DNA from: a virus
Lineage: Duplodnaviria > Heunggongvirae > Uroviricota > Caudoviricetes
IMG/VR virus record: IMGVR_UViG_2675903609_000002
Location: 1-15,393 of that record
DNA: 15,393 nt
Strand: one strand, 5' to 3'
Made by a program: the position numbers and the translations under genes. The notes below the pieces were generated by a model. It had not been told where the DNA came from. It made no database searches and worked only from the letters and a program-made list of their open reading frames with translations. Shown here in pieces: positions 1 to 15,393 of the stretch (position 1 is the stretch's first letter; the number at the start of each line of letters is the position of its first letter).

Positions 1-93
1 CCGCATAGTGCGCTGGGTTATCGCTCGCCACGGGAATATCTGCGGCAGCGGGCTTGTAATAGGTTAAGTGATAACAGATGTCTGGAAATATAG
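1..93 (+). CDS. insD: IS2 transposase OrfB (InsD), C-terminal 30 codons only; 5' part outside window
   Basis: Frame 1 translates to [30 protein letters not shown], stop TAG at 91-93, which is the InsD C-terminus from memory. Confidence 0.8.
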
Positions 94-104
94 GGGCAAA
101 TCCA
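1..104 (+). mobile_element. IS2, right-end fragment (element continues beyond the window start); terminus at 104
   Basis: Bases 1-104 match the 3' end of IS2 as I remember it, ending in the terminal repeat ...GTGATAACAGATGTCTGGAAATATAGGGGCAAATCCA. The sequence after 104 is unrelated usher coding sequence. Confidence 0.85.
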
Positions 105-1829
105 CCAGCGTTCTAACGGAATACTGAGATTCAAAGAGAGTGCACGGTCATTATTTTCATCAGTGTAGCGGCTGTATTGATAATTCAGGCTGTAACCAAT
201 TCCCCATTGCTGGCCGGAAACCCCAACAGAGATATTACTGTTTTTCTCGTTATTGCCCCAATAGTCTTGCTGTGAACCGGAGGCATACAGACTTACCCCA
301 TCAAATATTGTCTGGCTGATGTTGAATTGAATTTCACTTTTTTGGCGACTGTTATAGCCCCAATTGCGGGTATTGGCTTCATCAAAACTAAAATAGCCAT
401 CGTTGGTATAGCGATAGTAGCTAACAGCGATATTGGTGTTGGTTTCCGGGATATCTTTGATGTACTGAGTACGCCATTGATAGCCATGAAAAGAGTGCTG
501 GTTATCGAATTGGGTGTCAGCTCTGTTGATATCCATCGACAACGCGCCCAGTGCGCCAAGTGTGCCGCCGATACCGATCCCCAGCGCATAATAATCTTCA
601 GAACCGAGCAGGCCGCCATACAGCGTAAAAGTATTATTCAAACCATATATTGCCGTGGCTTCAGCAAATTCGGGTTCCTTGCTATCACTGTTTGCATCAG
701 CGCGATAGCGTCCAGCGGTCGCGCTATATTTTAGATGCCCAGGTCGCTGCATCATGGGTAATGAAGAATAAGGCTGGATAAAGCGACGTTGTGTACCGTC
801 ACTTTCTTCAATCGTGACTTCTAAATCGCCGCTGTTGGAAGAGGGGTAGAGATCGTTAATTTCAAAGGCACCCGCTGGCACGTTGCTTTGATAGATCACA
901 TAACCATTTTGCCTGATAGTCACGATTGCACTACTGTTTGCGATACCGCGTACCGTTGGGGCAAATCCGCGCTGGCTGTTTGGCAACATATTATCGTCGG
1001 AAGCGAGTTGCACGCCAGTAAAGGCGTAGCTGGAAAAAATACTGCCGCTGGTGGCGCTTTCTCCCAGAAGCAACTGAGACTTCAACGCCTTGATATCACG
1101 TTGTAAATAACTACTGATAGTGTTCCAGCTTGACGCCTGATCGTTGCGTGTCCACGTAGAATAGTTACGTAATCGCCAGGGGCCAAAATTAGCACCATTT
1201 TGCATATTCAGGTACTGTCGTTGGCTACGATTGCCCTGGCGGTAACGGTTATCAGAACCTGTAAACGAGTAGTTGGTAAACAGCGTTGGTATACCATCGT
1301 CCCAACGAGAAGGGGAGACGTAACCTCTTGCATCACGGTACAGTGCAATTTGGGGAATGCTCAAATTAAGTCGCTGATGATTGAAATCAAATTCAGCAGC
1401 TGTACCGGGAATGATTTGTTCAAGCGAGTTGATCACGCTATCGTCATCTTTTTCAGCCAGCGCCGGGATTTCATCCACCTTAATACCCAGCTCACGTAGT
1501 TGTTCTACCGTAAACTGTGGCTGCAGAAGTTGCTCTGCATTGGCGGTAAATGTAATTTTTTTCTGTGAAACCTTCTTTTTATTCAGCCAGATATCAACCT
1601 GATAAGTTCCTGGTAGTTGTGCGTATTTTTTTGAAAAACGTGACAGATCGGTTGTTTGCATACCACTTTTTGTAGTTTCCAGCATAATGGGGTCGAAATA
1701 ATACTCTTCGGCGTTAGCGGTAGTGCAAAGCATGCCGCTGCCAGTGAGCACCATCGGCAAACAACGTTTGATAATGAGCGCCAACTGTTTCGGTGTGCGT
1801 TTATGTCCCTGGTGGTGTCGTTGTGGCAT
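105..1829 (-). pseudogene. Fimbrial outer-membrane usher (PapC/FimD family), interrupted by IS2; N-terminal ~575 codons present
   Basis: Minus-strand ORF with signal peptide and usher N-terminal motif (MPQRHH...MVLTGSGMLCTTANAEEYYFDPIMLE...). The frame runs without a stop into the IS2 end at 104, so track ORF 18..1898 is a read-through artefact. Start taken at ATG 1829, 28 nt after the chaperone stop. Confidence 0.8.
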
Positions 1830-1857
1830 TCCCTGATGGCCTGTGTTTTTATATTTT

Positions 1858-2493
1858 TTATTGCAGTGGACGAGTTTCTGTCCCGGAACTGCCGCCATAA
1901 TCGTTGATCGCAGCCCATTTCACGTTCTTTCCGCCAGATGCTGGAAGTGGTAACTGTTTATGTTCTCCGGGCGCGATATATTCAATTTTGCTTGTGAGAT
2001 CGGTTTTATCGACTGCCAGTCCGGCAAATACGACGTAATATTCAGTTGGGTTATATATATTGAGTGAATGGTCACTACGTTTAAATTCCAGTGATTTCCA
2101 CGCATCGTTTACCCGTCCCTTCAGGTGTGCGGGGCGATAAAACATTTTGACCCGCGTTTTAAATACCAGCGTCAACTCGTTAGCATTAACATCATCTGAT
2201 TTTTTCTTTGCTGGAATGGCACGAACATTAATGTAGAACAGCGACTCTTTATTTTCAGGCAGGTTATCAGCTGTTTTAATAATTCGCAGTGATGAGTCAT
2301 CGCCAGCCTCAAGACGAAATAGCGGTGGGGTTATAATAAATGGGGCACGGCTTTTACCATCTATATTATCTACCCATGATTGCAGTAAATAAGGCGTTTC
2401 TGCGCCTTTGTTTGCGACAGGTAACGCAGCCTCTTTGCGGCTGGCATCATAGATCACTCGCGTTCGCTGTAAAACGATACCCCCTGCAGACAT
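1858..2493 (-). pseudogene. Fimbrial periplasmic chaperone (PapD/FimC family), 5'-truncated with no signal peptide
   Basis: Translation has chaperone hallmarks ([14 protein letters not shown]..., ...YLLQSWVDN...[13 protein letters not shown]...). The ORF begins at the mature-protein position, with an in-frame TAG (2494-2496) directly upstream and no signal peptide in any frame. Confidence 0.7.
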
Positions 2494-2562
2494 CTACTTG
2501 AAGCGGCAGGGGATTGATTGGAATGGTGTTTTTTAGATGTGAGAAATATTTTACCCGCTATT

Positions 2563-2763
2563 TTACCCATTGGCGCGGCTTAAGAGCTTATTTTTGAATT
2601 CACAATGGTCACGATATAACCATCTTGCTCGACCGTGGATAACTTTGGCTTTAGGCAGGTCGCCGGACTTAATCCGGTCGTAGATGAAGGTTTTACCAAA
2701 GCCAGTATCAGCCATGATGAATTTCAAATCAACCAGTGAATCAGGTTGTAGTTCGTGTTGCAT
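2563..2763 (-). CDS. AlpA/excisionase-family small DNA-binding protein (Xis-like), 66 aa
   Basis: SD GGAG 9 nt upstream of ATG 2763. Sequence ...DLKFIMADTGFGKTFIYDRIKSGDLPKAKVIHGRARW... resembles phage AlpA/Xis HTH proteins. It is the last gene of the leftward operon, where lambdoid xis sits. Confidence 0.55.
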   Translation of the reverse strand: MQHELQPDSLVDLKFIMADTGFGKTFIYDRIKSGDLPKAKVIHGRARWLYRDHCEFKNKLLSRANG

Positions 2764-2804
2764 GAGTGCTATCTCCGAATAGGGAATCGAACCTGCAAAT
2801 CAGG

Positions 2805-2830
2805 CAATAAAAAACCGCCATCAGGCGGCT
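2805..2830 (-). terminator. Intrinsic terminator candidate after the zinc-ribbon gene
   Basis: Minus-strand RNA AGCCGCC-UGAU-GGCGGUU followed by a U-rich tail (UUUUUUAUU). Confidence 0.45.
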
Positions 2831-2894
2831 TGGTGTTCTTTCAGTTCTTCAATTCGAATATTGGTTACATTGTTTTCATATATGAATAAATAAA

Positions 2895-3074
2895 TTAGCT
2901 TTTTTCGTTGCCTTCGCGTTCTTTATTAATTTTGACAAAATCGTTTTTACCACGCTCTCCAAATGCGTCTTTAGAGTCGTTGTATCCGCAATCGCAGCAC
3001 ACATAATCATCAGACCATCCACGCATTGTTTTTTCTTTTGCAATATTTCCAGAACCGCATTTTGGACAAGACAT
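2895..3074 (-). CDS. Small zinc-ribbon protein, 59 aa (CPKC...CCDC)
   Basis: SD GGAGG 7 nt upstream of ATG 3074. Translation MSCPKCGSGNIAKEKTMRGWSDDYVCCDCGYNDSKDAFGERGKNDFVKINKEREGNEKS has two Cys pairs. Confidence 0.55.
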   Translation of the reverse strand: MSCPKCGSGNIAKEKTMRGWSDDYVCCDCGYNDSKDAFGERGKNDFVKINKEREGNEKS

Positions 3075-3170
3075 ATCACTACCTCCAAAGCATGAGTGAG
3101 ATGACAACGTAACATTGATTGGAGATTAACAATAGATTGCTGATGTAAAAGATATGTATAAGCTTCGCTT

Positions 3171-4055
3171 TCAAAGTGGAGGCTCTGGTAGTGGCATCCA
3201 GTGGGTTACATTGCTAATCAGACCATATTCATTAGTTTGAGGATGGTTGCCGTTATCGTCTCCGTATTTAAGACTCTCCATAAAACCATAATGCTTATTC
3301 CCATTAACGCTCACAAAGCCGTAATAAGCTGGTATAACGCCGATCTCACACGTAATCAGCAAAGGAAAACTAGTTCTCCAATTTAGCTCGCCGATTACAG
3401 GCATTCTCTCACTACAGCTTATCCAACTATCCTGAGTTACCGGAGAGTTGCGCATTGCGACCTTTAATGCCTCATAGAAGCAACCTTTCAGATTGTTGAA
3501 CTGACGCCCATTTAGCAGGCCGTGTTCAGTCAGCATGTTGTGTAATTTCCATGCCGCGTCGTTTACTTCGCTGGATGACAGGGGAGGCAACTTGTAAGTT
3601 TGGCTTACAGTTTCGGCACCATGAAGCATGGCGTCGCTCCGCTCTATGCCATCCAGCGCGATTCGCAGTGCCTGAATTGTGGTAGAGCTATCGTTTGGGG
3701 CTATTCCATATCGCTCGAATACAGCTAAATGGTTGCGCATAATCTCAGGCGTAAGCTCTTTGTAAGCATAAGCAAGAGGCTCTGATGCATTATCCGGCAC
3801 AACCGACGCAGGCGCGGCAGCATAAACAGGAATAACGTCCGCTTGCTCTTTATTGCTTTCATCCGTTAAAGCCCAGAATAATTTCCCGGCAGGATGTTTG
3901 AAAATATAAGCAACTGGTTCTGCTTCCAGCGATGCCAGAGCAATTCGTGCCAGTTCTTCCGCTTCTTCTGCTGGCAGTTCAACGTTGCTACCAGGTCCGT
4001 ATGTTTCGCGCCACTGCTTGATTGTCAGTAGTCGCTCTTTGGTCATAGTGGTCAT
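3171..4055 (-). CDS. Phage early protein, 294 aa, C-terminal region resembling DUF551 (...THWMPLPEPPL)
   Basis: SD AAGGAG 7 nt upstream of ATG 4055, 1 nt after the upstream stop. Long ORF in the operon orientation. The DUF551 assignment is from motif memory only. Confidence 0.6.
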   Translation of the reverse strand: MTTMTKERLLTIKQWRETYGPGSNVELPAEEAEELARIALASLEAEPVAYIFKHPAGKLFWALTDESNKEQADVIPVYAAAPASVVPDNASEPLAYAYKELTPEIMRNHLAVFERYGIAPNDSSTTIQALRIALDGIERSDAMLHGAETVSQTYKLPPLSSSEVNDAAWKLHNMLTEHGLLNGRQFNNLKGCFYEALKVAMRNSPVTQDSWISCSERMPVIGELNWRTSFPLLITCEIGVIPAYYGFVSVNGNKHYGFMESLKYGDDNGNHPQTNEYGLISNVTHWMPLPEPPL

Positions 4056-4056
4056 A

Positions 4057-4785
4057 TCACTCTCCTTTGATGCGAAAGCCAGCTGCGCTTGCTGATTCTT
4101 CATATGCGCGTTTAGCAGCGTTAAGGATTGCTGCCAGTGGCGTATAGCCGCCATCCATTCGGATTGTGTTGTGGATGCCAGCCATTGTGTTGCGCAATTT
4201 TCTGTGGCTAGCAGACAGTTCTGCTATGCGCTTCTCTGCGGCTTCCAGCTTCTCGCGCATATCGTCAACGTACTCGACCAGAGAACCGCCAGCAGGAATT
4301 TCGCACTCCTCGACCAGTTGGAAGTAGATATCAGCTGCGGCCCGTGTGTTGCTATGCCTAGCGTCGCCCATCTCACCTTCACGAAGAGCATCGCGTTCGG
4401 CGGTAAGATTGGCTATTTTGCTGTCTTTGCCTTCCAGCTCAACGCGCAGCTTCCCTACCGTTAGCGCAATTTCCTCGTTCTCCTGATCGCGGCGTTTTAT
4501 GTATTGCTGGTTTCTTTCCAGCTCATCCAGCAGTGCCAGCACGGTAGCTGGACTGGCTGCGGCGATGAATTCAGCATTGGCCTGCTGTTCCATTTGGAAA
4601 TCTTCATCGAAACCGCTTTCAGGATGCGCTCCTTCAATTCTGCAAATGGGAATATATCCAGCAGCCTCGCGATGAATTAGGGCATCATCACCATCAAATC
4701 GGCTCTCTCCATATTCGAGCGACCACTCACCACACGTTGCTTTCTCTGCCTTGGCACGCAGTGCCTGATAGTCAATCTTGCTCAC
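4057..4785 (-). CDS. Ea22/Ead-like phage protein with central coiled coil, 242 aa, GTG start
   Basis: Strong SD AAAGGAGG 7 nt upstream of GTG 4785. The upstream part of track ORF 4057..4977 overlaps the Lar-like gene in another frame and is discounted. Confidence 0.55.
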   Translation of the reverse strand: MSKIDYQALRAKAEKATCGEWSLEYGESRFDGDDALIHREAAGYIPICRIEGAHPESGFDEDFQMEQQANAEFIAAASPATVLALLDELERNQQYIKRRDQENEEIALTVGKLRVELEGKDSKIANLTAERDALREGEMGDARHSNTRAAADIYFQLVEECEIPAGGSLVEYVDDMREKLEAAEKRIAELSASHRKLRNTMAGIHNTIRMDGGYTPLAAILNAAKRAYEESASAAGFRIKGE

Positions 4786-5005
4786 TGTTTGCCTCCTTTG
4801 CTCGCTGATTCCACTCTGCTCTAACCTCTGAATAAAAAATCGCGCAGTCATTTCCAGGCGCTGCATATTTGCTACCAGATTGAGCGCGACACGTACCGCA
4901 TCGAACGAAATAGAATCGACCGCCAGAGCCATATTCAGGGTGATCTGCTTCGCTGGCAACGTGCGCTGCACCGCCACAGAATGGACATGGTAGTAGGTTG
5001 CTCAT
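4772..5005 (-). CDS. Lar-family restriction-alleviation-type zinc-finger protein, 77 aa
   Basis: [16 protein letters not shown]...FVRCGTCRA... has the CPFCGG / CxxC pattern of Lar-family proteins. SD AAGGGAG upstream; its ATG overlaps the upstream stop as ATGA. Confidence 0.6.
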   Translation of the reverse strand: MSNLLPCPFCGGAAHVASEADHPEYGSGGRFYFVRCGTCRAQSGSKYAAPGNDCAIFYSEVRAEWNQRAKEANSEQD

Positions 5006-5562
5006 GAATGCACTCCCTTGTGAAGCTGTTCCGCACAATGCAGCAGGGCGTCAGTCGCCTCTTTCACCGTAACGCAGTCGCCATCGTCCAGCCCGGACAC
5101 CGACGCGTGCTTAACGAACGCCGCGCAAAGGTCATCAAACGCCTTAGCCCGGACTTCAGTCAGGAAAGCATCGGTGGCTGGGGTGTCTGATTGCATAGAC
5201 TTTGCGCGATAGTCATTCCACCCTCTTGCATACATGGGATTAACTTGCACTCCATCTTTTACGCAATATGCCTGCCCTCCACGGTTGATAACCTTGATTT
5301 CGTCCATAGCGCCAGACTTCAGCCCCGCATTCTCCGCTGCCAGTGCCGAAAACTTCTCGTGTGCCAACTTAACAGCCGAATCAGCCTGCTTAATTGACTC
5401 AATCGCTTTCTGTTGGTCTTCGGCCAGCGCCAAAATCTTGGCCTCCGCTTCAGCAAATTTACGCACCAGATATTCAGCGTTTGTTTCGTTAACATTTAAA
5501 TCTCGTGGGATGCATTTACCTTTCAGAAAACCATCCATCTCAATTAGTGACATTTGTTTCAT
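5002..5562 (-). CDS. Hypothetical phage protein, 186 aa
   Basis: ATG 5562 overlaps the stop of the upstream small ORF (ATGA). SD-like GGAG upstream. Helical N-terminal half, no motif I recognise. Confidence 0.55.
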
Positions 5563-5723
5563 TTCTTCCCACTCCGCCACATCGCATTCAGATATTTGTT
5601 TTGATTCACTGATGGAAACGAGTTTCGCTTAAGCAATTCCTCTCTCGATGGCATTGGCTTTACGCGTTGGCGAATAATCATTTCTGCCGGAAGAATGCCG
5701 GGATTGTATGCAAGTCCTCTCAT
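5559..5723 (-). CDS. Hypothetical small protein, 54 aa
   Basis: SD GAGGA 7 nt upstream of ATG 5723. Stop overlaps the downstream start (ATGA). Longer in-frame starts at 5756 and 5741 lack an SD. Confidence 0.4.
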
Positions 5724-5733
5724 GGTAAATTCC

Positions 5734-6030
5734 TCAGTCATTACTGATAGCGCCATAGCGTGATCGATAATTACGCAGACGCGGGTCGATATATTCAGGG
5801 AAGTGGGTATATGTGGCTTTGCGGAATGGTCGGATTGATGTCTGGTAAATTCGCTCGCGTTCTTCTTTCTCTGCAAGCCATATACAGTGGCGAAATTCCT
5901 TTTCCTCTTTCGTTTCCTGCGGTAGCGACATTATCCGATCGTAGTTTTTTCTGAATTTATCCAGCACCTCCGATACGGAATTGCCGGAACAGCGGCGCGG
6001 GTCATCCGCACCATACAGAGGCGCTGGCAT
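5734..6030 (-). CDS. Hypothetical phage protein, 98 aa
   Basis: SD AGGAGA 5 nt upstream of ATG 6030, 14 nt after the exonuclease stop. Confidence 0.55.
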
Positions 6031-6046
6031 GTTTTTCTCCTGTTGA

Positions 6047-6595
6047 TTATTTAGCTAACTTTTTCCAGATCGCTGAAACGTATTTGGCTTGGTGAATGGC
6101 ATCATCAAGAGCGTTGTGGCGAGTTCCTTTGAATGGCATATCTCGCTTAGGGTCGAATCCTATTGCCTTCCCAAGTTCGACGATTGTTCTTACGTCGCGG
6201 TCATTCCACCACTGCCACGGAACTGGCTGCCCTGTCAGCGAATAACTGTTGCGGAGAATAACGCAGTCAAATGATGCTCCATTCCCCCAAACCTGAACGA
6301 ATTTGTGGTTAGCGTTCTTTATGATGAATTCAGATAACCATGAAAGAGCCGTTGAAAGCTCCTGAGTGTTGCTGGTTAGCGATTTCCTGGCTTCTTCACT
6401 CTGTTCCAGCCACCATAAAATCGTTGAAGCGTCAGGACGCGCTCGATATCGCATTGATGATTCAAGCGAGATATTTACCGAGAACTCTTCTCCTGTTTCT
6501 CCGGTATTCGGGTCAAAGAATACCGCCCCAATAGAAATAACTGGCGCGTATGGCCCGTTGCCCATTGTTTCAAGGTCAACCATCAAGTGATTCAT
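6047..6595 (-). CDS. DnaQ-like (DEDD) 3'-5' exonuclease, 182 aa
   Basis: Exo motifs MVDLETMG (I), WGNGASFD (II) and HNALDDAIHQA (III). SD AAGGA upstream. Confidence 0.8.
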   Translation of the reverse strand: MNHLMVDLETMGNGPYAPVISIGAVFFDPNTGETGEEFSVNISLESSMRYRARPDASTILWWLEQSEEARKSLTSNTQELSTALSWLSEFIIKNANHKFVQVWGNGASFDCVILRNSYSLTGQPVPWQWWNDRDVRTIVELGKAIGFDPKRDMPFKGTRHNALDDAIHQAKYVSAIWKKLAK

Positions 6596-6603
6596 GTAAG
6601 TCC

Positions 6604-7119
6604 TTAAATTGCGTGAATAGCGTGACGAGGGAAGGGGAGAGTTACTGGTGCAAAGGGGATATCGTCGTCAAAATCCATAGGTGGTTCGCTGTGATTTCCC
6701 TGCTGCTGAGGTTGCTGTCTTTGTTGCTGACCATTATTTCGCTGAGGTGAAGACTGTTCATTGCCTCCTTGCTTGCCACCAAGCATTTGCATGGTTCCAC
6801 CAACGCCCACGATGACTTCGGTAGTGAACCGATCCTGTCCGCTTTGATCCTGCCATTTTCTTGTCCGCAATTTGCCTTCAAGATAAACCTCAGAGCCTTT
6901 TCGCAGATATTCGCTGGCAATTTCTGCCAGTTTCCCGCTCATTACCACGCGGTGCCACTCCGTCTGCTCCTTTTGCTCTCCAGTTTTCTTATCACGCCAT
7001 TGTTCTGACGTAGCAACGGTAAGGTTTGCAAATGCCGTTCCTGATGGTGAATATCTGATTTCTGGATCATGCCCAAGGCGACCAATAATGATCACCTTAT
7101 TTACGCCTCTGCTTGCCAT
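6604..7119 (-). CDS. ssb: Single-stranded DNA-binding protein (SSB), 171 aa, with a 15-aa extension after the DDDIPF tip
   Basis: [16 protein letters not shown]... OB fold, Gly/Gln-rich linker, then ...[11 protein letters not shown] followed by [15 protein letters not shown] before the stop. Confidence 0.9.
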
Positions 7120-7827
7120 TTATGCCGCCTGTTTTAGTTCGTTAACTCTGATGTTCATTACCTGAACGCATTTAGCCTGCGCCTCCTCGTTGCCAGCCAT
7201 TAATTGCCAGTCACGCTGATAACGCTCGATGAGTTTTTTCTTGTCAGTTTCTGTTGACGCATAATCGCTGAAGTCTTTCAGGATTTGTTCGCAGTCAACC
7301 GATGGAGATTTCTGGTTGGTATTTTCTGGTGATGGTTTGTTATCTGATGCTGGGATTGCCCATCCCGGCAGCGATGGAGGGAGCCAGTAAAATCCTGTTC
7401 CATCCTTGAGTTTTGCCCTGTGCCATCCCTGCTTTTTATCGAGAGATGTTTGTGCAAAACCTTCCTCAAGGTTATACAGATACCGACCGATCCCCCACTG
7501 AACGGCAGCGCGCTTCATTGCACCGGAACGACCACCTTTGACGGCTTCTACCTGCGTGTTTTCAGCAGCATCCCATTTGGTTACCCATTCGGAATCAATC
7601 CTGATTGATATGCCGCATTCAACGCCTCCGTTGTTGGGAATATCGCGGTATTCATTGCGCCATCCTGCTTTGCCGCAAACATCGTCCAGGCGTTTCATGA
7701 TTGCCCGGTTCGTGACATAAGCCAGCACCATAGCCCACACTTTGCCATCGCGTGTTTTACCGCTTTGCTGTATTCGCCATTCGATATCTTCAGGGCTGAA
7801 TGGCTTATCGAATTTATTCAAATCCAT
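7120..7827 (-). CDS. Rad52/Rad22-family single-strand annealing protein (Sak-like), 235 aa
   Basis: ...AYVTNRAIMKRLDDVCGKAGWRNEY...GGVECGISIRI... fits the Rad52 N-domain pattern. Directly upstream of ssb (stop abuts the ssb ATG); SD GAGGTGA upstream. Confidence 0.65.
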   Translation of the reverse strand: MDLNKFDKPFSPEDIEWRIQQSGKTRDGKVWAMVLAYVTNRAIMKRLDDVCGKAGWRNEYRDIPNNGGVECGISIRIDSEWVTKWDAAENTQVEAVKGGRSGAMKRAAVQWGIGRYLYNLEEGFAQTSLDKKQGWHRAKLKDGTGFYWLPPSLPGWAIPASDNKPSPENTNQKSPSVDCEQILKDFSDYASTETDKKKLIERYQRDWQLMAGNEEAQAKCVQVMNIRVNELKQAA

Positions 7828-7926
7828 AATTCACCTCAGAATGGACATGGCCCAAGGAAATAACGCTGGTTTAATACTTCGACTCTGGACAAATTAAGGC
7901 ATACCCGCATTCCTTCGCGGTCACCA

Positions 7927-8085
7927 TTATGGCGATACCAGAGAGCTTTCTGCGTGTACATGCGTCTCTGTAACTTGCTCTCCTTCACTGTGGTTGCAAG
8001 TGACATGAATATCTCCTTCGTTACCGATTAATTCTTTCATATGACGAATGAATTCTTCGTCTGACCAGTTATCTGTAAAACTCAT
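7927..8085 (-). CDS. Hypothetical small protein, 52 aa
   Basis: ATG 8085 overlaps the Kil-like stop as ATGA. No SD of its own; an internal ATG at 8040 is an alternative start. Confidence 0.3.
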   Translation of the reverse strand: MSFTDNWSDEEFIRHMKELIGNEGDIHVTCNHSEGEQVTETHVHAESSLVSP

Positions 8086-8234
8086 TTCCTGCGACACCAC
8101 GGAAGGTTGATAGCTGATTTCATCGCTTTATTTGCTTCAAGCCACATTTTTGAATCACCAATAAATCTGGCTATTACTGCTTTGTTCTGTGCAGCACGAA
8201 GCATCTGATGATTTATGGCTATTTCATTGCGCAT
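8082..8234 (-). CDS. Kil-like small protein, 50 aa (not in ORF track, under 60 aa)
   Basis: MRNEIAINHQMLRAAQNKAVIARFIGDSKMWLEANKAMKS... resembles the ...FIGDEKM... core of lambda Kil / Rac KilR from memory. Lies immediately downstream of cIII as in lambda. Confidence 0.5.
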   Translation of the reverse strand: MRNEIAINHQMLRAAQNKAVIARFIGDSKMWLEANKAMKSAINLPWCRRK

Positions 8235-8350
8235 AATAAGACCTCAACTCTTTTCCATCCGTCACGTAATTTACGGGTGATTCGTTCAAGTAAAGATTCA
8301 TTTAGTTGGAAGGCACCCATGCGAGCGCCTCCCGCGATTGCGTAAATCAT
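8219..8350 (-). CDS. cIII: cIII-like protease inhibitor, 43 aa (not in ORF track)
   Basis: MIYAIAGGARMGAFQLNESLLERITRKLRDGWKRVEVLLCAMK. The core ESLLERITRKLRDGWKR matches lambda cIII as I recall it. SD AAGGA 7 nt upstream. Confidence 0.8.
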   Translation of the reverse strand: MIYAIAGGARMGAFQLNESLLERITRKLRDGWKRVEVLLCAMK

Positions 8351-8374
8351 GGGTGGTTCCTTATGTTGGTTTTA

Positions 8375-9343
8375 TTAGTAGGTTATTTTTGTTGCGAATA
8401 CTTCGCCTTTTACGATGGCTGTTATGATATTTTTAGCAACATCTTCTGATGCACCAACCTTGATAAGGTCAGCAAGTATTTTGTTATTTACTTCTTTCCG
8501 GTGAGCTTTATCCTTTGCTCTACGCTCTTCTTCTTCCTTGATTCTTTTTTCTTCTGCTATTCTGGCTTGCTCTTTTGCTTCAGCATCGCGACGGATTCGT
8601 TCAGCCTCCTCCTGTGCTTTTCTGCGTTCTGCTTCAATTGCTGCCTGCTTTTCTCTTTCAGCTCGTTCTGCTGCCTCTTTTGCTTCGCGCTGTGCTCGCT
8701 GCTCGGCTTCAATGCGTTCACGCTCTGCACGTTCCGCTGCGGCCTTAGCTTCTGCTTCTCGCCTTGCTGCTGCTTCAATTTCGGCTTTTGCCTTTGCTTC
8801 GGCTTCTGCTCTGGCTTTCTCTTCAGCTTCTCTTTTTAAGCGTTCTTCATGCTCTCGCTTTTCCTGCTCCGCTTTGAGTCTTGCCTCTTCTCTTTGGCGG
8901 TCAAATTCGCGATCCATCAAAATAGCTATTTCATGGTCAGACTCAATTTGCTTTGCGAGAGCTTCAGCTGCTGCCTTAGCTTCTTCTTCGGCTTTAATCC
9001 GCGCCTGTTCTTCCTCATAATCAGTAAGAGGCTGGCGCGCCTTGGCTTTCAGTTCATCAAGGCGATCGCGCACTGTCTTGCGGTTAGCATCAATTAGCTT
9101 TGGAATTTCCTTCAGTTCAGCAACAAGGTCTTTGCCAAGACCATCGAGATATGTTTTCGTCTGCGCAACTTTATACGCCAGAGAAGCGATCTCCTTTCTG
9201 CCCTTTGCCGTTGTGATATCAGGCACAAAGGACATAACTTCACGTTCAACCTTTTGAAGGATTTCTTCAATCTGGTCGGCAGACTGAAATACAGTCATTG
9301 CATTTGCTTTTTCAATAACAACTAAATCTGTTACTTCACTCAT
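8375..9343 (-). CDS. Hypothetical early protein, 322 aa: N-terminal ~120-aa domain, ~170-aa Ala/Glu/Lys/Arg-rich coiled-coil region, short C-terminal domain
   Basis: SD GGAGGA 5 nt upstream of ATG 9343. Long ORF in operon orientation. The central region is low-complexity at DNA level. Confidence 0.7.
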   Translation of the reverse strand: MSEVTDLVVIEKANAMTVFQSADQIEEILQKVEREVMSFVPDITTAKGRKEIASLAYKVAQTKTYLDGLGKDLVAELKEIPKLIDANRKTVRDRLDELKAKARQPLTDYEEEQARIKAEEEAKAAAEALAKQIESDHEIAILMDREFDRQREEARLKAEQEKREHEERLKREAEEKARAEAEAKAKAEIEAAARREAEAKAAAERAERERIEAEQRAQREAKEAAERAEREKQAAIEAERRKAQEEAERIRRDAEAKEQARIAEEKRIKEEEERRAKDKAHRKEVNNKILADLIKVGASEDVAKNIITAIVKGEVFATKITY

Positions 9344-9355
9344 ATATCCTCCGTC

Positions 9356-9384
9356 AAAAAAATTGCCCTCACACTGGAGGGCAA
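9356..9384 (-). terminator. Intrinsic terminator immediately upstream of the 322-aa gene
   Basis: Minus-strand RNA UUGCCCUC-CAGUGU-GAGGGCAA followed by U7; the gene's SD starts 5 nt later. Confidence 0.6.
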
Positions 9385-9500
9385 AGAAGATTTCCAATAA
9401 TCAGAACAAGTCGGCTCCTGTTTAGTTACGAGCGACATTGCTCCGTGTATTCACTCGTTGGAATGAATACACAGTGCAGTGTTTATTCTGTTGTTTATGC

Positions 9501-9528
9501 CAAAAATAAAGGCCACCGTCAGGCAGCC
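9501..9528 (-). terminator. Intrinsic terminator candidate overlapping the ral stop codon
   Basis: Minus-strand RNA GGCUGCC-UGAC-GGUGGCC (two G.U pairs) followed by UUUAUUUUU. Confidence 0.45.
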
Positions 9529-9719
9529 TTGTTGTTCAGTTTACCAAGTTCTCTGGCAATCATTGCCGTCGTTCGTATTGCCCATTTATCGACATATTTC
9601 CCATCTTCCATTACAGGAAACATTTCTTCAGGCTTAACCATGCATTCCGATTGCAGCTTGCATCCATTGCATCGCTTGAATTGTCCACACCATTGATTTT
9701 TATCAATGGTCGTAGTCAT
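9519..9719 (-). CDS. ral: Ral restriction-alleviation protein, 66 aa
   Basis: MTTTIDKNQWCGQFKRCNGCKLQSECMVKPEEMFPVMEDGKYVDKWAIRTTAMIARELGK... matches lambda Ral almost residue-for-residue from memory. Confidence 0.9.
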   Translation of the reverse strand: MTTTIDKNQWCGQFKRCNGCKLQSECMVKPEEMFPVMEDGKYVDKWAIRTTAMIARELGKLNNKAA

Positions 9720-9789
9720 ACGGATAGTCCTGGTATTGTTCCATCACATCCTGAGGATGCTCTTCGAACTCTTCAAATTCTTCTTCCAT
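9703..9789 (-). CDS. Small acidic ORF, 28 aa, between N and ral
   Basis: ATG 9789 with SD GGTG 4 nt upstream. Translation MEEEFEEFEEHPQDVMEQYQDYPYDYDH; overlaps the ral start by 16 nt. Confidence 0.35.
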   Translation of the reverse strand: MEEEFEEFEEHPQDVMEQYQDYPYDYDH

Positions 9790-9797
9790 ATATCACC

Positions 9798-10124
9798 TCA
9801 AATAAGTGGTTTGCTGCCTAATTTCATTTTCTGGCGACCAACACAAGTCACACCCATTTCACTGCGTGGCTTGCTGTACCATGTGCGCTGATTCTTGCGC
9901 TCAATACGCTGCAGGTTGCTTTCAATCTGTTCGTGGTATTCAGCCAGCACCGTAAGGTCTATCGGATTCAGTGCGCTTTCTACTCGTGATTTCGGTTTGC
10001 GATTCAGCGAGAGAATAGGGCGGTTAACTGGTTTTGCGCTTACCCCAACCAACAGGGGATTTGCTGCTTTCCATTGAGCCTGTTTCTCTGCGCGACGTTC
10101 GCGGCGGCGTGTTTGAGAGTCCAT
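9798..10124 (-). CDS. N: Antitermination protein N, 108 aa
   Basis: MDSQTRRRERRAEKQAQWKAANPLLVGVSAKPVNRPILSLNRKPKSRVESALNPIDLTVLAEYH... is near-identical to lambda N (Arg-rich motif intact), differing mainly in the C-terminal ~20 aa. Confidence 0.95.
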   Translation of the reverse strand: MDSQTRRRERRAEKQAQWKAANPLLVGVSAKPVNRPILSLNRKPKSRVESALNPIDLTVLAEYHEQIESNLQRIERKNQRTWYSKPRSEMGVTCVGRQKMKLGSKPLI

Positions 10125-10165
10125 ATATCATCCTCAGATAAATGGCCCCTCAGCGGGGCCGACAG

Positions 10166-10294
10166 TTATTGGCAGGTTGCGTACTTGCTGATGCAGGAGA
10201 AGATTTCCACGATTCGCGTCATTGTTGTTTCAGGACGCTTTGCTTCATCACGCATTGACTTCAACCAAGCCATAAAGTGTTCGTTATGTTTCAT
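10166..10294 (-). CDS. Small ORF, 42 aa, inserted between the N leader and N (not in ORF track)
   Basis: ACAGGAG-ATGAAC-ATG: it uses the SD that precedes N directly in lambda. Translation MKHNEHFMAWLKSMRDEAKRPETTMTRIVEIFSCISKYATCQ. A GGCCCC-GCUGA-GGGGCC hairpin (10144-10160) follows. Confidence 0.35.
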   Translation of the reverse strand: MKHNEHFMAWLKSMRDEAKRPETTMTRIVEIFSCISKYATCQ

Positions 10295-10561
10295 GTTCAT
10301 CTCCTGTCAGTTAGCTTTGGTGGTGTGGTGGCTGGTAGTCTAGCTCCAGCTTGTTGAGTCTCATTCGGAGGGGTATAACCGGCACCCCAGCGATTTTTCC
10401 ATGCGACAACGTGCGCGTTATGGCGGCCTTATCGCCCGCGGCTCCCCATCTCGTCCACGCTATTGCTAGCGTTGGGAGCGCTTCACCGCTCAACAGTAGG
10501 TAAGCACTTGCCAGTGACTAGCTGGCTTCACCACACCCCAAAGCCTTCTGCTTTGAATGCT

Positions 10562-10592
10562 GCCCTTCTTCAGGGCTTAATTTTTAAGAGCC
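10562..10592 (-). promoter_or_regulatory. nutL (boxA-like + boxB hairpin)
   Basis: Minus strand reads GGCTCTTAAAAATTAA-GCCCTGAAGAAGGGC. The boxB hairpin matches lambda nutL as I recall it; boxA has G where lambda has C at its first position. Confidence 0.8.
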
Positions 10593-10636
10593 TCACCTTC
10601 ATGGTGGTCAGTGCGTCCTGCTGATGGCTTAAAATT

Positions 10637-10704
10637 ACAAGAAAGATTGTATGTTGTAAACAAGAAATATTGTAAAAAGGGGCGTGAAAAACAAACTCCA
10701 TTGT
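10637..10704. promoter_or_regulatory. OL operator cluster (OL1 10637-10650, OL2 10660-10673, OL3 10691-10704) with the PL promoter
   Basis: Three 14-bp ACAA-N6-TTGT sites: ACAAGAAAGATTGT, ACAAGAAATATTGT, ACAAACTCCATTGT. Minus-strand -35 candidates TTTACA at 10660-10655 or 10676-10671; hexamers not resolved. Confidence 0.75.
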
Positions 10705-10753
10705 TTTTAAATGAAAAATAGTTTGTTTTTGGTTATCGAGATTGAGGTGGGGA

Positions 10754-12106
<1,353 letters not shown>

Positions 12107-12114
12107 GACATTCC

Positions 12115-12146
12115 CGCTCTTACACATCCCAGCCCTGAAAAAGGGC
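12115..12146 (+). promoter_or_regulatory. nutR (boxA CGCTCTTACACA + boxB GCCCTGAAAAAGGGC)
   Basis: Matches lambda nutR boxA/boxB from memory; sits just after the cro stop. Confidence 0.8.
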
Positions 12147-12215
12147 ATTACCAGAAACAAATCTCTATGGTTTTGCGTTTCTTTGCGAAGCCAACTCTAT
12201 CTAATCATTAAGGAA

Positions 12216-12248
12216 ATTATCTATGGGTACTATTGCAACTAAAAGCAA
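12216..12248 (-). promoter_or_regulatory. PRE-like cII-activated promoter (TTGC-N6-TTGC box at 12248-12235, -10 GATAAT at 12221-12216)
   Basis: Minus strand reads TTGCTTTTAGTTGC, 13 nt, GATAAT, inside the first cII codons. This is the same architecture and position as lambda PRE. Confidence 0.55.
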
Positions 12249-12504
12249 GAAAGCGGCTCGCATCGAGTCAGCCTTGCTGAACAAACTGGCACTGATGGGG
12301 CAGAAGACATTCGCTCGAGCAATGGGGGTTCCTGAATATCAGGTAAGCCGATGGAAGAATGGTTTCTTCTCGCAGGTAAGCATGATGCTTGCTGTTCTGG
12401 AATACGGAATCGAAGACGATGAAATGGCTGAATTGACTAAGCGGCTTGCCGATTACCTGACAAAAGAAAAAGCCCCGAAGAACGGCGAATTCTTCGAGGC
12501 CTAA
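12223..12504 (+). CDS. cII: cII transcriptional activator, 93 aa
   Basis: ...[15 protein letters not shown]...[10 protein letters not shown]...[19 protein letters not shown]... parallels lambda cII. SD AAGGA upstream. Confidence 0.85.
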
Positions 12505-12538
12505 TGTAGAAAGACTGGATCAATCCACGGGAGTAATT

Positions 12539-12685
12539 ATGACAAAACAACTCAGTCCTTACCAGGACAAAATTCACAAACACATACTACGTGATCGCTT
12601 CCTGTCCAGCTTCAAGCAGCATGGTCGATTCCGGGCTGAGTTGGAAAAAGTGAAGCTGATGCAGAAGGAGAAAGGTCATGAGTAA
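12539..12685 (+). CDS. Small ORF, 48 aa, between cII and O (not in ORF track)
   Basis: SD GGGAG 8 nt upstream of ATG 12539. Translation [48 protein letters not shown]; overlaps the O start by 8 nt. Confidence 0.4.
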
Positions 12686-13538
12686 TCTTGCAACCGTAAC
12701 ACATTTAAGGCCTTCACAACGGCCTGTGGAGCGTCGTGTGGCAGAAGTTGAAGATGGTTATACCCGTCTTGCAAATGCCCTGTATGAAGAGCTTATCGGC
12801 GCAGATTTAACGAAAAATCAGAGCAAGGTTGCCCACGCCATATGCCGTAAAACATACGGCTACGGTAAAAAGATGGATCGCATCTCTGATAGTCAGTTAG
12901 CTCAAATTACCAGGCTGCCAAGACAGAAGGTAAACAAGGCCAAGAATGAGCTTATCGCGATGAAGGTTATCCTTCGCGAAGGCCAGCAAATCGGGCCTAA
13001 CAAGAACATCGAGGAATGGCAAATAGAAGGGTGTCACTACTCTGGTGATAATGTCACTGCATTGGTGACAAAAAGTGTCACCAAAACGGTGACAGCGCTG
13101 TCACCAAAACAGGGACACACAAAAGAAACTATTACAAAAGAAAAAAGAAATAATAAAAACACTATGTCCGAAAGTGTTCGGACGGAGTGTGAAAAATCAC
13201 ATGACCGTCACGAAGAAACCGACAAGGCATTCGAGGAAATATTCTGGTGTGCAGGCATGCGGAAAGCCGGGAAGAAAAACGCAGCTTCGGCATTCAGAAC
13301 ACAGTTCAGGGAATGGCGTAAAACTACCAGGGGTACGGCAAGCGAGTTTGCCACGATGCTGGCAGAAGACATCGCATGCAGGAATGGTAAGCAGTTCGGA
13401 TTCGACAGGTTGTTACCATCGAGCTACCTGAACGGTCAACGCTGGAACGACGAGAAGCCAGAAACTATTCAACCACAATCCAAACCATCATCCGCAATCA
13501 CCGTATCGAAAACTGGCTACGTGTTTTTCGACAGGTGA
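12678..13538 (+). CDS. O: Replication initiator O-like protein, 286 aa
   Basis: N-terminal ~100 aa (...[58 protein letters not shown]...) parallel lambda O. SD AGGAGA upstream; iteron origin inside the gene. Confidence 0.9.
13032..13165. other. Replication origin: four 19-bp iterons (13032-13050, 13052-13070, 13076-13094, 13099-13117) plus AT-rich region (13118-13165)
   Basis: Palindromic iterons TGTCACY-N5-RGTGACA, two with an AAAAC spacer, then about 48 bp of A-rich DNA. Lambda ori inside O has the same architecture (TCCCTC-AAAAC-GAGGGA). Confidence 0.75.
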
Positions 13539-13541
13539 ACC

Positions 13542-13649
13542 ATGAAATCAAAAATCAAATCGCTACTGGTTGCTGGTTATAACCACGGCTGGTTAAGTAT
13601 TTCGTTTGTCGATTTCTGGTTTAAAAATCTCAATCTGAGGGAATCATGA
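13542..13649 (+). CDS. Small hydrophobic ORF, 35 aa, bridging O and the primase-helicase
   Basis: ATG 13542 lies 3 nt after the O stop. Its stop TGA overlaps the primase-helicase ATG (ATGA). Translation MKSKIKSLLVAGYNHGWLSISFVDFWFKNLNLRES. Weak SD. Confidence 0.3.
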   Translation: MKSKIKSLLVAGYNHGWLSISFVDFWFKNLNLRES

Positions 13650-15393
13650 CGCCAAGTGAACTTAGCGACCTGCTTTGGGCGCAGGTTGACAGGGTGGCTC
13701 CGCACCTGTTGCCAAACGGCAAGAAAGAGGGGCATGAGTGGGTTGCCGGTAACGTCAATGGTGACAAGGGAAACAGCCTTAAGGTCAACCTTAGCGGCAA
13801 GAAAAAATGGGCTGATTTCGCTGAGGGAGACGGCGGTGACATGCTTGATTTGTGGATGGCATGTCGTGGAATTAACCTGCATCAGGCTATGCAGGAAGCG
13901 AAAGCATTTCTCGGTATCAAGGATGACGATCACCATTTCGATGCCAAACGTGAGAAAAAATTCTCCAGACCTGATCGCAAGAAAATCGCCCGCTACGTTA
14001 CCAGAACAGAATCCCATCTTGAGTACCTGCAATCGCGTGGCATATCGCCAGAAGTCGTAAAGCGCTACGAGGTTGTCAGCGGCAAGGTGTGGAATGGAGA
14101 ACGAGAACTTGATGCACTGGTGCTTCCGTACAAACGCGATGGTGAGTTGTTGCAGGTCAAGCGAATCAGCACTGAGCGCCCGGACGGGAAGAAAGTCATT
14201 ATGGCAGAAGGTGATTGCGAACCTTGTCTGTTCGGATGGCAGGCTCTGGACGCTGGCGTGAGGGCGGTTGTACTTTGCGAAGGCGAAATTGATTGTATGA
14301 GCTATGCGCAATACGGCATCTCGGCGTTATCCGTGCCGTTTGGTGGAGGGAAAGGCGCTAAGCAACAGTGGATTGAGTTTGAGTACCACAACCTCGACAG
14401 GTTTGAGGAAATATTCATCTCGATGGACGTTGATGATGTTGGTCGTGAAGCCGCAAGGGAAATCGCAAGCCGACTCGGTGAACATCGTTGCCGTCTTGTT
14501 ACTCTGCCGTACAAAGACATCAACGAATGCCTGATGAACGGTGTTACCGAGGATGAAATCTGGCAGTACATCGGCACGGCATCCTACTTTGATCCTGAAG
14601 AACTCTACAGCGCGCGAGAGTTTTACCAGGACACTATCAACGCTTTCTACGGCAAGCAGCAGTATCTGTTTAATCCACCGTGGGAATCTCTGGCAGATAA
14701 ATTCCAGTTTCGTGAGGCCGAGTTGACGCTGGTCAATGGTGTGAACGGTCACGGAAAAACGGAGGTTGTCGGGCATATGGCACTTGAGGCAATGCGTCAG
14801 GGTGTGAAGACGTGCATCGCGTCACTTGAGCTGAAGCCTGGTATTCTCCTTAAGCGCCTTACCCGTCAGGCGACGTGCTGCAAGATGCCGCCAGTGCTGG
14901 AAATTGACTCTGCATTTAAATTTTATGACGAAAGACTTTGGGTGTTTGGCCTGACTGGAACGGCGAAAGCCGACAGGCTGATCGAAATATTCGACTACGC
15001 TCGCCGCCGATACGGCATCCAGTTATTCATCATCGACAGCCTGATGAAATGCGGCATAGGTGACGATGACTATAACGGGCAGAAAGCATTTGTTGACTCG
15101 ATTTGTGACTTCAAAAACAAAACAAACTCCCACGTCATTCTCGTTACTCACTCCAGAAAAGGAGATAGCGAAGAAAAACCAACCGGGAAAATGGACGTAA
15201 AAGGCTCTGGAGCGATAACAGACCTGACAGACAACCTTTTTATCATCTGGCGTAACAAGGCTCGCGAGAGAGCGTTACAGAGAGTTCAGAGTGGTGAAAA
15301 GATGTCAGAGAAGGACGAACAGCTACTGGCATCTCCGGCATCTGTTTTGATGCTTGAAAAACAACGTAACGGCGAAGGTTGGGAAGGTGGTGT
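13646..15393 (+). CDS. Bifunctional DNA primase (toprim) / DnaB-like replicative helicase, 5' partial (3' end beyond window)
   Basis: Open frame from ATG 13646 (SD GAGGG) to the window end with no stop, 582 codons. Absent from the ORF track because it is open-ended. Toprim motifs VLCEGEIDCMSY and SMDVDDVGREAA; Walker A GVNGHGKT; Walker B-like LFIIDSLMK. Confidence 0.85.
   Translation, partial: MTPSELSDLLWAQVDRVAPHLLPNGKKEGHEWVAGNVNGDKGNSLKVNLSGKKKWADFAEGDGGDMLDLWMACRGINLHQAMQEAKAFLGIKDDDHHFDAKREKKFSRPDRKKIARYVTRTESHLEYLQSRGISPEVVKRYEVVSGKVWNGERELDALVLPYKRDGELLQVKRISTERPDGKKVIMAEGDCEPCLFGWQALDAGVRAVVLCEGEIDCMSYAQYGISALSVPFGGGKGAKQQWIEFEYHNLDRFEEIFISMDVDDVGREAAREIASRLGEHRCRLVTLPYKDINECLMNGVTEDEIWQYIGTASYFDPEELYSAREFYQDTINAFYGKQQYLFNPPWESLADKFQFREAELTLVNGVNGHGKTEVVGHMALEAMRQGVKTCIASLELKPGILLKRLTRQATCCKMPPVLEIDSAFKFYDERLWVFGLTGTAKADRLIEIFDYARRRYGIQLFIIDSLMKCGIGDDDYNGQKAFVDSICDFKNKTNSHVILVTHSRKGDSEEKPTGKMDVKGSGAITDLTDNLFIIWRNKARERALQRVQSGEKMSEKDEQLLASPASVLMLEKQRNGEGWEGG

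Follow-up and report, generated by a model that had tools for sequence, protein, structure and literature searches.

The stretch of DNA analysed here (the window) comprises positions 1 to 15,393 of the IMG/VR virus record IMGVR_UViG_2675903609_000002, and its interval 2895–6030 is an ordinary, much-shuffled ea accessory block of a P22/HK620-like Escherichia coli prophage. The interval very probably forms the distal end of the early-left (PL) operon of a prophage of this (Lederbergvirus) type, that is, the classical non-essential ea region. Seven genes were read from the sequence, all on the minus strand, and Pfam and PHROG scans place every one of them in a family, the closest phage counterparts being those of HK620, HF4s and P22 at 76–100% identity. 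An earlier reading made from the letters alone (the sequence-only reading) had counted eight open reading frames (ORFs) but listed only seven. Seven are found, with the listed sizes of 59, 294, 242 (from a GTG start), 77, 186, 54 and 98 amino acids (aa); the gap of 96 nucleotides (nt) at 3075–3170 is non-coding and is present also in P22 and HK620. The block is already known and very common, and the rigid linkage of Abc2, DUF2737 and EaE is the sole mildly new observation. Its significance is mostly one of annotation, as a textbook case of a mosaic ea (exo–xis) region in which all the genes have close annotated relatives.

The gene order matches those of P22 and HK620. Starting at position 6030 and following the minus strand, the run comprises abc2, the orf56/DUF2737 gene, an eaE-type gene, the eaD/Ea22-type gene, the eaA/DUF551-type gene and eaG, with a Lar-like gene inserted between the eaE- and eaD-type genes. 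The comparison with related prophages that the sequence-only reading had proposed gives the same order in HF4s and in E. coli prophages as well. The exonuclease gene that precedes abc2 heads an exonuclease–SSB–Rad52-like recombination module, and the N gene, Ral, cIII and kil are also located upstream of the run. At the opposite end the torI/xis gene follows the terminator/boundary sequence and a cII-site-like motif (TTGC-N5-TTGC at 2807–2795, read from the sequence), whose position corresponds to the annotated integration promoter of HK620. The two ends of the run (Abc2–DUF2737, and EaG with its flanks) are near-invariant, while the middle is a patchwork with breakpoints at conserved junction sequences or within genes. 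By sequence, each of the three middle genes is a mosaic, put together from modules that thousands of enterobacterial prophages contain. Pieces of the interval are present in 3495 of 5426 complete E. coli genomes, with ≥80% of it covered in only one genome. The exo–xis region of lambda and of Shiga toxin (Stx) phages has been described as conserved yet mosaic, non-essential and modulating the lysis/lysogeny decision, with Ea22 as an N-terminal/coiled-coil scaffold whose C-terminal domains can be exchanged and with DUF551 regarded as a portable domain (PMC10834534). The features of the interval and of its flanks are itemized in Table 1.

Table 1. Features of the ea run and its immediate flanks, in window coordinates (RBS, ribosome-binding site)
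Feature	Position	Strand	Length	Details
abc2 (anti-RecBCD protein 2)	6030..5734	minus	98 aa	ATG at 6030; RBS GGAG 6040-6037
DUF2737 gene (P22 orf56 / HK620 hkaI / HK97 gp38 type)	5723..5559	minus	54 aa	
EaE/hkaH-like gene	5562..5002	minus	186 aa	ATG 5562
Lar-like four-Cys zinc-ribbon gene	5005..4772	minus	77 aa	ATG 5005
Ead/Ea22-family gene	4785..4057	minus	242 aa	GTG start 4785; RBS AGGAGG 4797-4792
EaA-type mosaic gene with C-terminal DUF551	4055..3171	minus	294 aa	
Non-coding spacer 5′ of eaG	3075..3170	minus	96 nt	
eaG zinc-ribbon gene	3074..2895	minus	59 aa	CxxC...CCxC
Boundary sequence with intrinsic terminator	2805..2868	minus		Hairpin 2831-2812 plus T-run; closes the ea run (terminator scan)
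torI/xis-type excisionase (flank)	2563..2763	minus		100% identical to HK620 hkaC
3′-5′ DEDDh exonuclease (flank)	6047..6595	minus		PF16473, E = 7e-74; PGAP names in relatives

The annotated order in P22 is xis-eaC-eaG-eaA-eaI-eaD-eaF-orf45-eaE-orf56-abc2-abc1-erf. The window shares with it the gene order and strand logic, the spacer before eaG, the terminator after it and the gap of 10 nt between abc2 and orf56. It differs in lacking eaC, eaI, eaF, orf45 and abc1, in carrying the extra Lar-like gene, and in its EaA, EaD and EaE, which are other mosaics with 32–46% identity over parts only. The recombination neighbours differ too, being exonuclease–SSB–Rad52-like in the window and abc1–erf–arf in P22. 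HK620 has the order hkaC(TorI)-hkaD(EaG)-hkaE(DUF551)-hkaF-hkaG(Ea22)-hkaH-hkaI(DUF2737)-hkaJ(Abc2), with the same 4-nt overlaps at module junctions. However, hkaF is absent from the window, hkaE encodes 177 aa as against 294 in the window, and HK620 lacks the Lar-like gene and has Sak4 in place of the Rad52-like annealase.

The sequence-only reading had equated the interval with the ea genes of lambda. This is correct insofar as it is the accessory ea, or exo–xis-equivalent, region of a lambdoid prophage, but the parallel is positional only because the flanking exonuclease is a DEDDh 3′-5′ enzyme and not a homologue of lambda Exo. In common with the lambda and Stx-phage genes (ea8.5, ea22, orf61, orf63 and orf60a) are the position between the recombination genes and xis, presumed early expression from PL, the character of non-essential modulators of lysis and lysogeny (PMC10834534, PMC7093339), the Ead_Ea22 N-terminal/coiled-coil module and the boundary sequence next to xis. 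The Ea22 module is nevertheless the only part homologous to lambda; ea8.5, orf61, orf63 and orf60a are missing from the window, and the anti-RecBCD protein is Abc2 rather than Gam.

The genes are tightly packed and appear translationally coupled, as the sequence-only reading had held. ATGA stop/start overlaps connect the DUF2737 gene to the EaE-like gene (5562–5559) and the latter to the Lar-like gene (5005–5002). The stop of the Lar-like gene and the GTG start of the Ea22-type gene overlap by 14 nt, a single nucleotide separates the Ea22-type stop from the start of the 294-aa gene, and 10 nt separate the abc2 stop from the DUF2737 start. Both ATGA starts are preceded by Shine–Dalgarno sequences (GGGAG at 5017–5013 and GGAG at 5575–5572). 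The overlaps are far beyond chance, because the +1-frame ORFs that they open run for 77 and 186 codons with family matches and with Shine–Dalgarno sequences of their own, and because the overlap of DUF2737 with EaE recurs in ~78 of 80 related loci. The stop/start overlaps are read as conserved module junctions. Three more ATGA sites listed by the sequence-only reading are likewise present, leading from kil into a 52-aa phrog_2123 ORF (8085–8082), from the cI-type repressor gene into that of a phrog_2651 protein (11158–11155) and from a 35-aa phrog_21848 ORF into the primase/helicase gene (13646–13649). All are genuine gene junctions, since each of the small ORFs at these sites belongs to a PHROG family.

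The 98-aa protein had been listed as being of unknown function, and its gene is here relabelled as abc2. It matches PF11043 (Anti-RecBCD_p2) over its full length (residues 1–98 on a 97-position profile, E = 4.3e-62, 206.8 bits against a cut-off of 25), belongs to phrog_656 (‘abc2 anti-RecBCD’) and aligns with the solved chains of P22 Abc2 (PDB 8b1t/8b1u) with E = 1.4e-56. Its identity is 93% to P22 Abc2 and 98% to HK620 hkaJ. The P22 protein has been characterised biochemically and structurally, with cryo-electron microscopy of Abc2 on RecBCD, and its Pro68 is proposed to occupy the active site of PpiB (PMC9836394). Pro68 is kept in the window, and the segment IRPFRKATY is conserved in the alignment to 8b1t. 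The identity to P22 Abc2 suggests that the window protein would bind RecC and modify RecBCD. Directly downstream of abc2, the DUF2737 protein matches PF10930 over its full length (E = 2.6e-31, 107.7 bits against a cut-off of 25), and is 100% identical to HK620 hkaI and 75% identical to P22 orf56.

The 186-aa EaE-like protein has no Pfam match and is placed by phrog_614 (E = 1e-57). It is 76% identical to the HF4s ‘EaE’ and 40% identical to HK620 hkaH beyond a shared N-terminus (the first ~45 aa), and its match to P22 EaE is limited to a 37-aa TPATDAFL motif. The family comprises 631 representative clusters, within which segments 1–48, 30–85, 86–147 and 125–186 recombine independently and conservation is limited to short motifs, AEQLRKG among them. 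An AlphaFold2 model (predicted local distance difference test, pLDDT, of 72) is all-helical, with a 70-residue helix predicted to form a long coiled coil, followed by a helical C-terminal part; a Foldseek search of the PDB with the model returned nothing below E = 5. A common Ea22 origin of the 186- and 242-aa proteins was considered and rejected, as direct similarity is not significant, although PHROG 368 joins modules of both. The sequence-only reading had called the 186- and 54-aa proteins unknown; their families can now be named (EaE/hkaH type and DUF2737, respectively), while a demonstrated function is still lacking for both.

The 77-aa Lar-like protein matches PF14354 over profile positions 2–58 of 58 (E = 1.4e-9, 38.5 bits against a gathering score of 28.6) and belongs to phrog_599 (Lar-like). 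The four zinc-binding cysteines, read from the translation, are C7, C10, C37 and C40. Among 80 viral loci that were retrieved with DUF2737 and chosen at ≥98% DUF2737 identity, 4 have the cassette, which makes it an occasional insert. Its frame is intact in six of six other cassette-bearing loci, that of phage HF4s included. The last 30 nt of the cassette are a conserved sequence that elsewhere encodes the C-terminus of EaE (…KGGKQ*) followed by the RBS and GTG of the Ea22 gene, so the cassette was slotted in at this boundary sequence.

In the HF4s record (MT833387) an intact Lar-like gene is located at 4143–4376, equivalent to window 4772–5005 with 99.6% nucleotide identity; it is unannotated, and the record instead calls an N-terminally extended ‘EaD’ (270 aa) across it in another frame. 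The analysis has thus identified a Lar-like gene that the phage record misses. The window also carries a Ral homologue (9719..9519, minus strand; 75% identical to P22 Ral, phrog_1055, E = 3e-49) in the same early-left operon, so that this prophage encodes both Ral and a Lar-like protein.

The 242-aa protein matches PF13935 over aa 2–144 (E = 1.8e-30), with weak hits of coiled-coil type at 158–204. Its identity to HK620 hkaG is 80%, with an exchange of the final ~50 aa, and its 58% identity to lambda Ea22 over 74 aa is confined to aa 51–124. The 294-aa protein is 47% identical to HF4s EaA, and its homologues, which number at least 8000, all bear the name ‘DUF551 domain-containing protein’. It matches PF04448 (DUF551) over aa 210–293 (E = 6e-11, 43.4 bits against a cut-off of 22). 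Alignment A2 gives a variable N-terminus, a conserved core (aa 47–145), a variable linker and the DUF551 domain, in which the motifs W-I-S-C-S..MP and W-MPLPEPP are present and W211, I212, S213, C214, S215, M218, P219, W286 and M287 are invariant. An AlphaFold2 model of this protein, based upon a 22-sequence alignment, had a mean pLDDT of 38.8 and was unusable. Structure prediction, which the sequence-only reading had suggested as a check, added nothing for either the 186- or the 294-aa protein.

EaG is 95% identical to P22 EaG and to HK620 hkaD (phrog_2945, E = 5e-31), while its zinc-finger similarity in Pfam, NCBIfam and PDB searches is weak (HVO_2753-type) and below cut-off. The DNA of eaG with its spacer and terminator is 98.4% identical to that of P22, and the module from the spacer to the downstream hairpin retains 98–100% DNA identity across P22, HK620 and E. 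coli prophages. The spacer itself is invariant, with no variable column among five sequences (alignment A3, including P22, HK620 and two E. coli prophages). No excess RNA folding was found in the spacer (z = −0.08), nor any promoter-like site, and it was for these reasons rejected as a distinct RNA or promoter element. Lambda, Sf6 (‘bsq2 boundary sequence’), HK022, 933W and P22 all have the hairpin region 2805–2868, and in P22 it is annotated as the aI RNA terminator. Conservation is higher in the two non-coding stretches beside eaG (3075–3170 and 2805–2894) than in eaG itself.

Taken as a P22/HK620-like early-left operon, the run would be read early, on infection or induction, from the N-antiterminated PL transcript. 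The ATGA, GTG/14-nt and 1-nt junctions would give termination–reinitiation coupling and co-expression, the Shine–Dalgarno sequence of each downstream gene being inside the 3′ end of the gene before it. Abc2 would redirect RecBCD towards the phage's own annealase, and type I restriction is probably opposed by the Lar-like zinc ribbon and the Ral homologue. Like the Ea22 proteins of lambda and Stx phages, the Ea22-type coiled-coil protein probably favours lysogeny. The four remaining proteins (EaG, DUF2737 and the DUF551 and EaE-like proteins) are most likely additional small proteins that bind host proteins. The sequence-only reading had regarded the region as a home for host-interaction and anti-defence genes, which agrees with the presence of Abc2 and the Lar-like protein. 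Its description of the run as uncharacterised fails for Abc2 (PMC9836394) and for family membership, but is apt for EaG, the DUF551 protein, the EaE-like protein and DUF2737; with these four lacking a demonstrated function, the ORFs do not all fall into well-characterised families of known function. The remote-homology searches that it had recommended yielded a PDB match for Abc2; there was none for the 186-, 294-, 242-, 77- and 54-aa proteins, and that for EaG was sub-threshold. A PADLOC search with the seven proteins gave no defence-system match (the best being a 14-bit coiled-coil hit to LmuB, E = 0.005), and a literature search on DUF2737 and the P22 ea gene names found nothing useful.

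Several points weigh against the reading as a P22/HK620-like early-left operon with these functions. A demonstrated function is lacking for four or five of the seven proteins, and PL transcription, antitermination and coupling are all deduced from the DNA. No homologue of P22 Abc1 is present in the window. The Ea22-type protein and lambda Ea22 have different C-terminal domains, with no PDB match to the lambda one, and because of this the pro-lysogenic role may not transfer. For the Lar-like protein, restriction alleviation is uncertain because the score against NCBIfam TIGR03655 (29.4 bits) falls below the cut-off of 39.6, identity to Rac RalR/Lar is 26% over 42 aa, and RalR, the Rac Lar protein, has been reported to be a DNase toxin (PMC4041452). 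The Lar-like gene might then encode a toxin of RalR type in a type I toxin–antitoxin system rather than a restriction-alleviation factor. Rac Lar, founder of the family, carries the annotation of an endodeoxyribonuclease toxin (RalR) that is paired with the small RNA antitoxin RalA (PMC4041452), and the two proteins share PF14354 and a small N-terminal CxxC...CxxC zinc ribbon, encoded by genes that adjoin prophage recombination genes. This is unlikely given so low an identity, however. The window protein has 77 aa as against 64, Rfam at gathering thresholds finds neither a RalA-like RNA nor any other family in the whole window, and the gene is an occasional insert that lies within a tightly coupled operon and does not stand alone beside an antisense partner. 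It is far less probable still that the gene calls are wrong, such that the Lar-like frame is spurious, the Ea22-type gene is a 306-aa ORF starting at GTG 4977 and one ATGA junction is lost. The ORF 4057..4977 is indeed open, and the N-terminal 64 aa of the HF4s 270-aa EaD align with its extension. But the Lar frame has a Pfam match over the gathering score with four of four cysteines and is intact in all six cassette-bearing loci, while HK620 hkaG begins at the short MSKIDYQ position after a strong AGGAGG RBS, and cassette-free loci lack the Ea22 N-terminal extension. The reading with a Lar-like gene and a 242-aa protein is favoured because the HF4s cassette is intact at 99.6% identity.

A further alternative concerns the function-unknown genes, and in particular the invariant Abc2–DUF2737–EaE block, which might constitute an unrecognised anti-defence module in which, for example, DUF2737 and/or the EaE N-terminal module assist Abc2 as cofactors in the takeover of RecBCD, in place of P22 Abc1. 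In the 80 viral loci Abc2 is directly upstream of DUF2737 in 79, the exception being cut by a contig end, and the gap between them is 10 nt in all 79, as in P22. The EaE-like gene follows DUF2737 in 78 of the 80, with the ATGA overlap in ~78, although the EaE-like proteins vary between 38 and 97% identity and the first ~45 aa persist even in proteins whose remainder has been exchanged. Genome contigs scanned with Abc2 returned only six loci, and all six carry DUF2737; Abc1 is absent from the window. Against this, the linkage could be mere shared descent and a recombination-cold junction, because the viral loci were chosen by near-identity of DUF2737. An anti-defence module has no structural, PADLOC or literature support, and Abc2 alone binds RecBCD in vitro (PMC9836394), so we consider this explanation improbable. 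It is equally a long shot that Abc2, DUF2737 and the EaE N-terminal module form a fixed, translationally coupled three-gene unit, its 10-nt gap and ATGA overlap unchanged amid recombination on all sides, in which DUF2737 and/or EaE act with Abc2 as unrecognised partners, either to co-opt RecBCD or to hide the takeover from RecBCD-guarding defences. If the linkage is functional it provides a cheap lead on the handling of RecBCD by P22-like phages that lack Abc1.

Elsewhere in the window, the 35-aa ORF (13542–13649, plus strand; phrog_21848, E = 4e-26) is located between the replication-protein and primase/helicase genes, and is unannotated in the RefSeq relative B7A. On the minus strand, the ORFs 8085..7927 (52 aa, phrog_2123) and 8006..7836 (56 aa, phrog_1723) overlap by ~77 nt in different frames. 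Both PHROGs are labelled ‘recombinase’; at this position HK620 has the single 62-aa hkaM, and PGAP calls only the second ORF in relatives. The overlapping ORFs at 7836–8085 could be a frameshifted gene or two truly overlapping genes.

Within positions 1–2560 of the window the host flank is formed by the yra fimbrial operon, with an IS2 inserted into its usher gene yraJ; the end of this IS2 makes up the first ~106 nt. The prophage end abuts yraI, the chaperone gene, at a shared 8-bp CCCCTGCA (about 2481–2488), and for this reason yraI is without its first ~65 nt. The yraI–torI junction was found in none of the 5426 complete E. coli genomes, which suggests integration at a secondary site or a rearrangement. 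The 8-bp CCCCTGCA is part of the HK620/argW-type att core.

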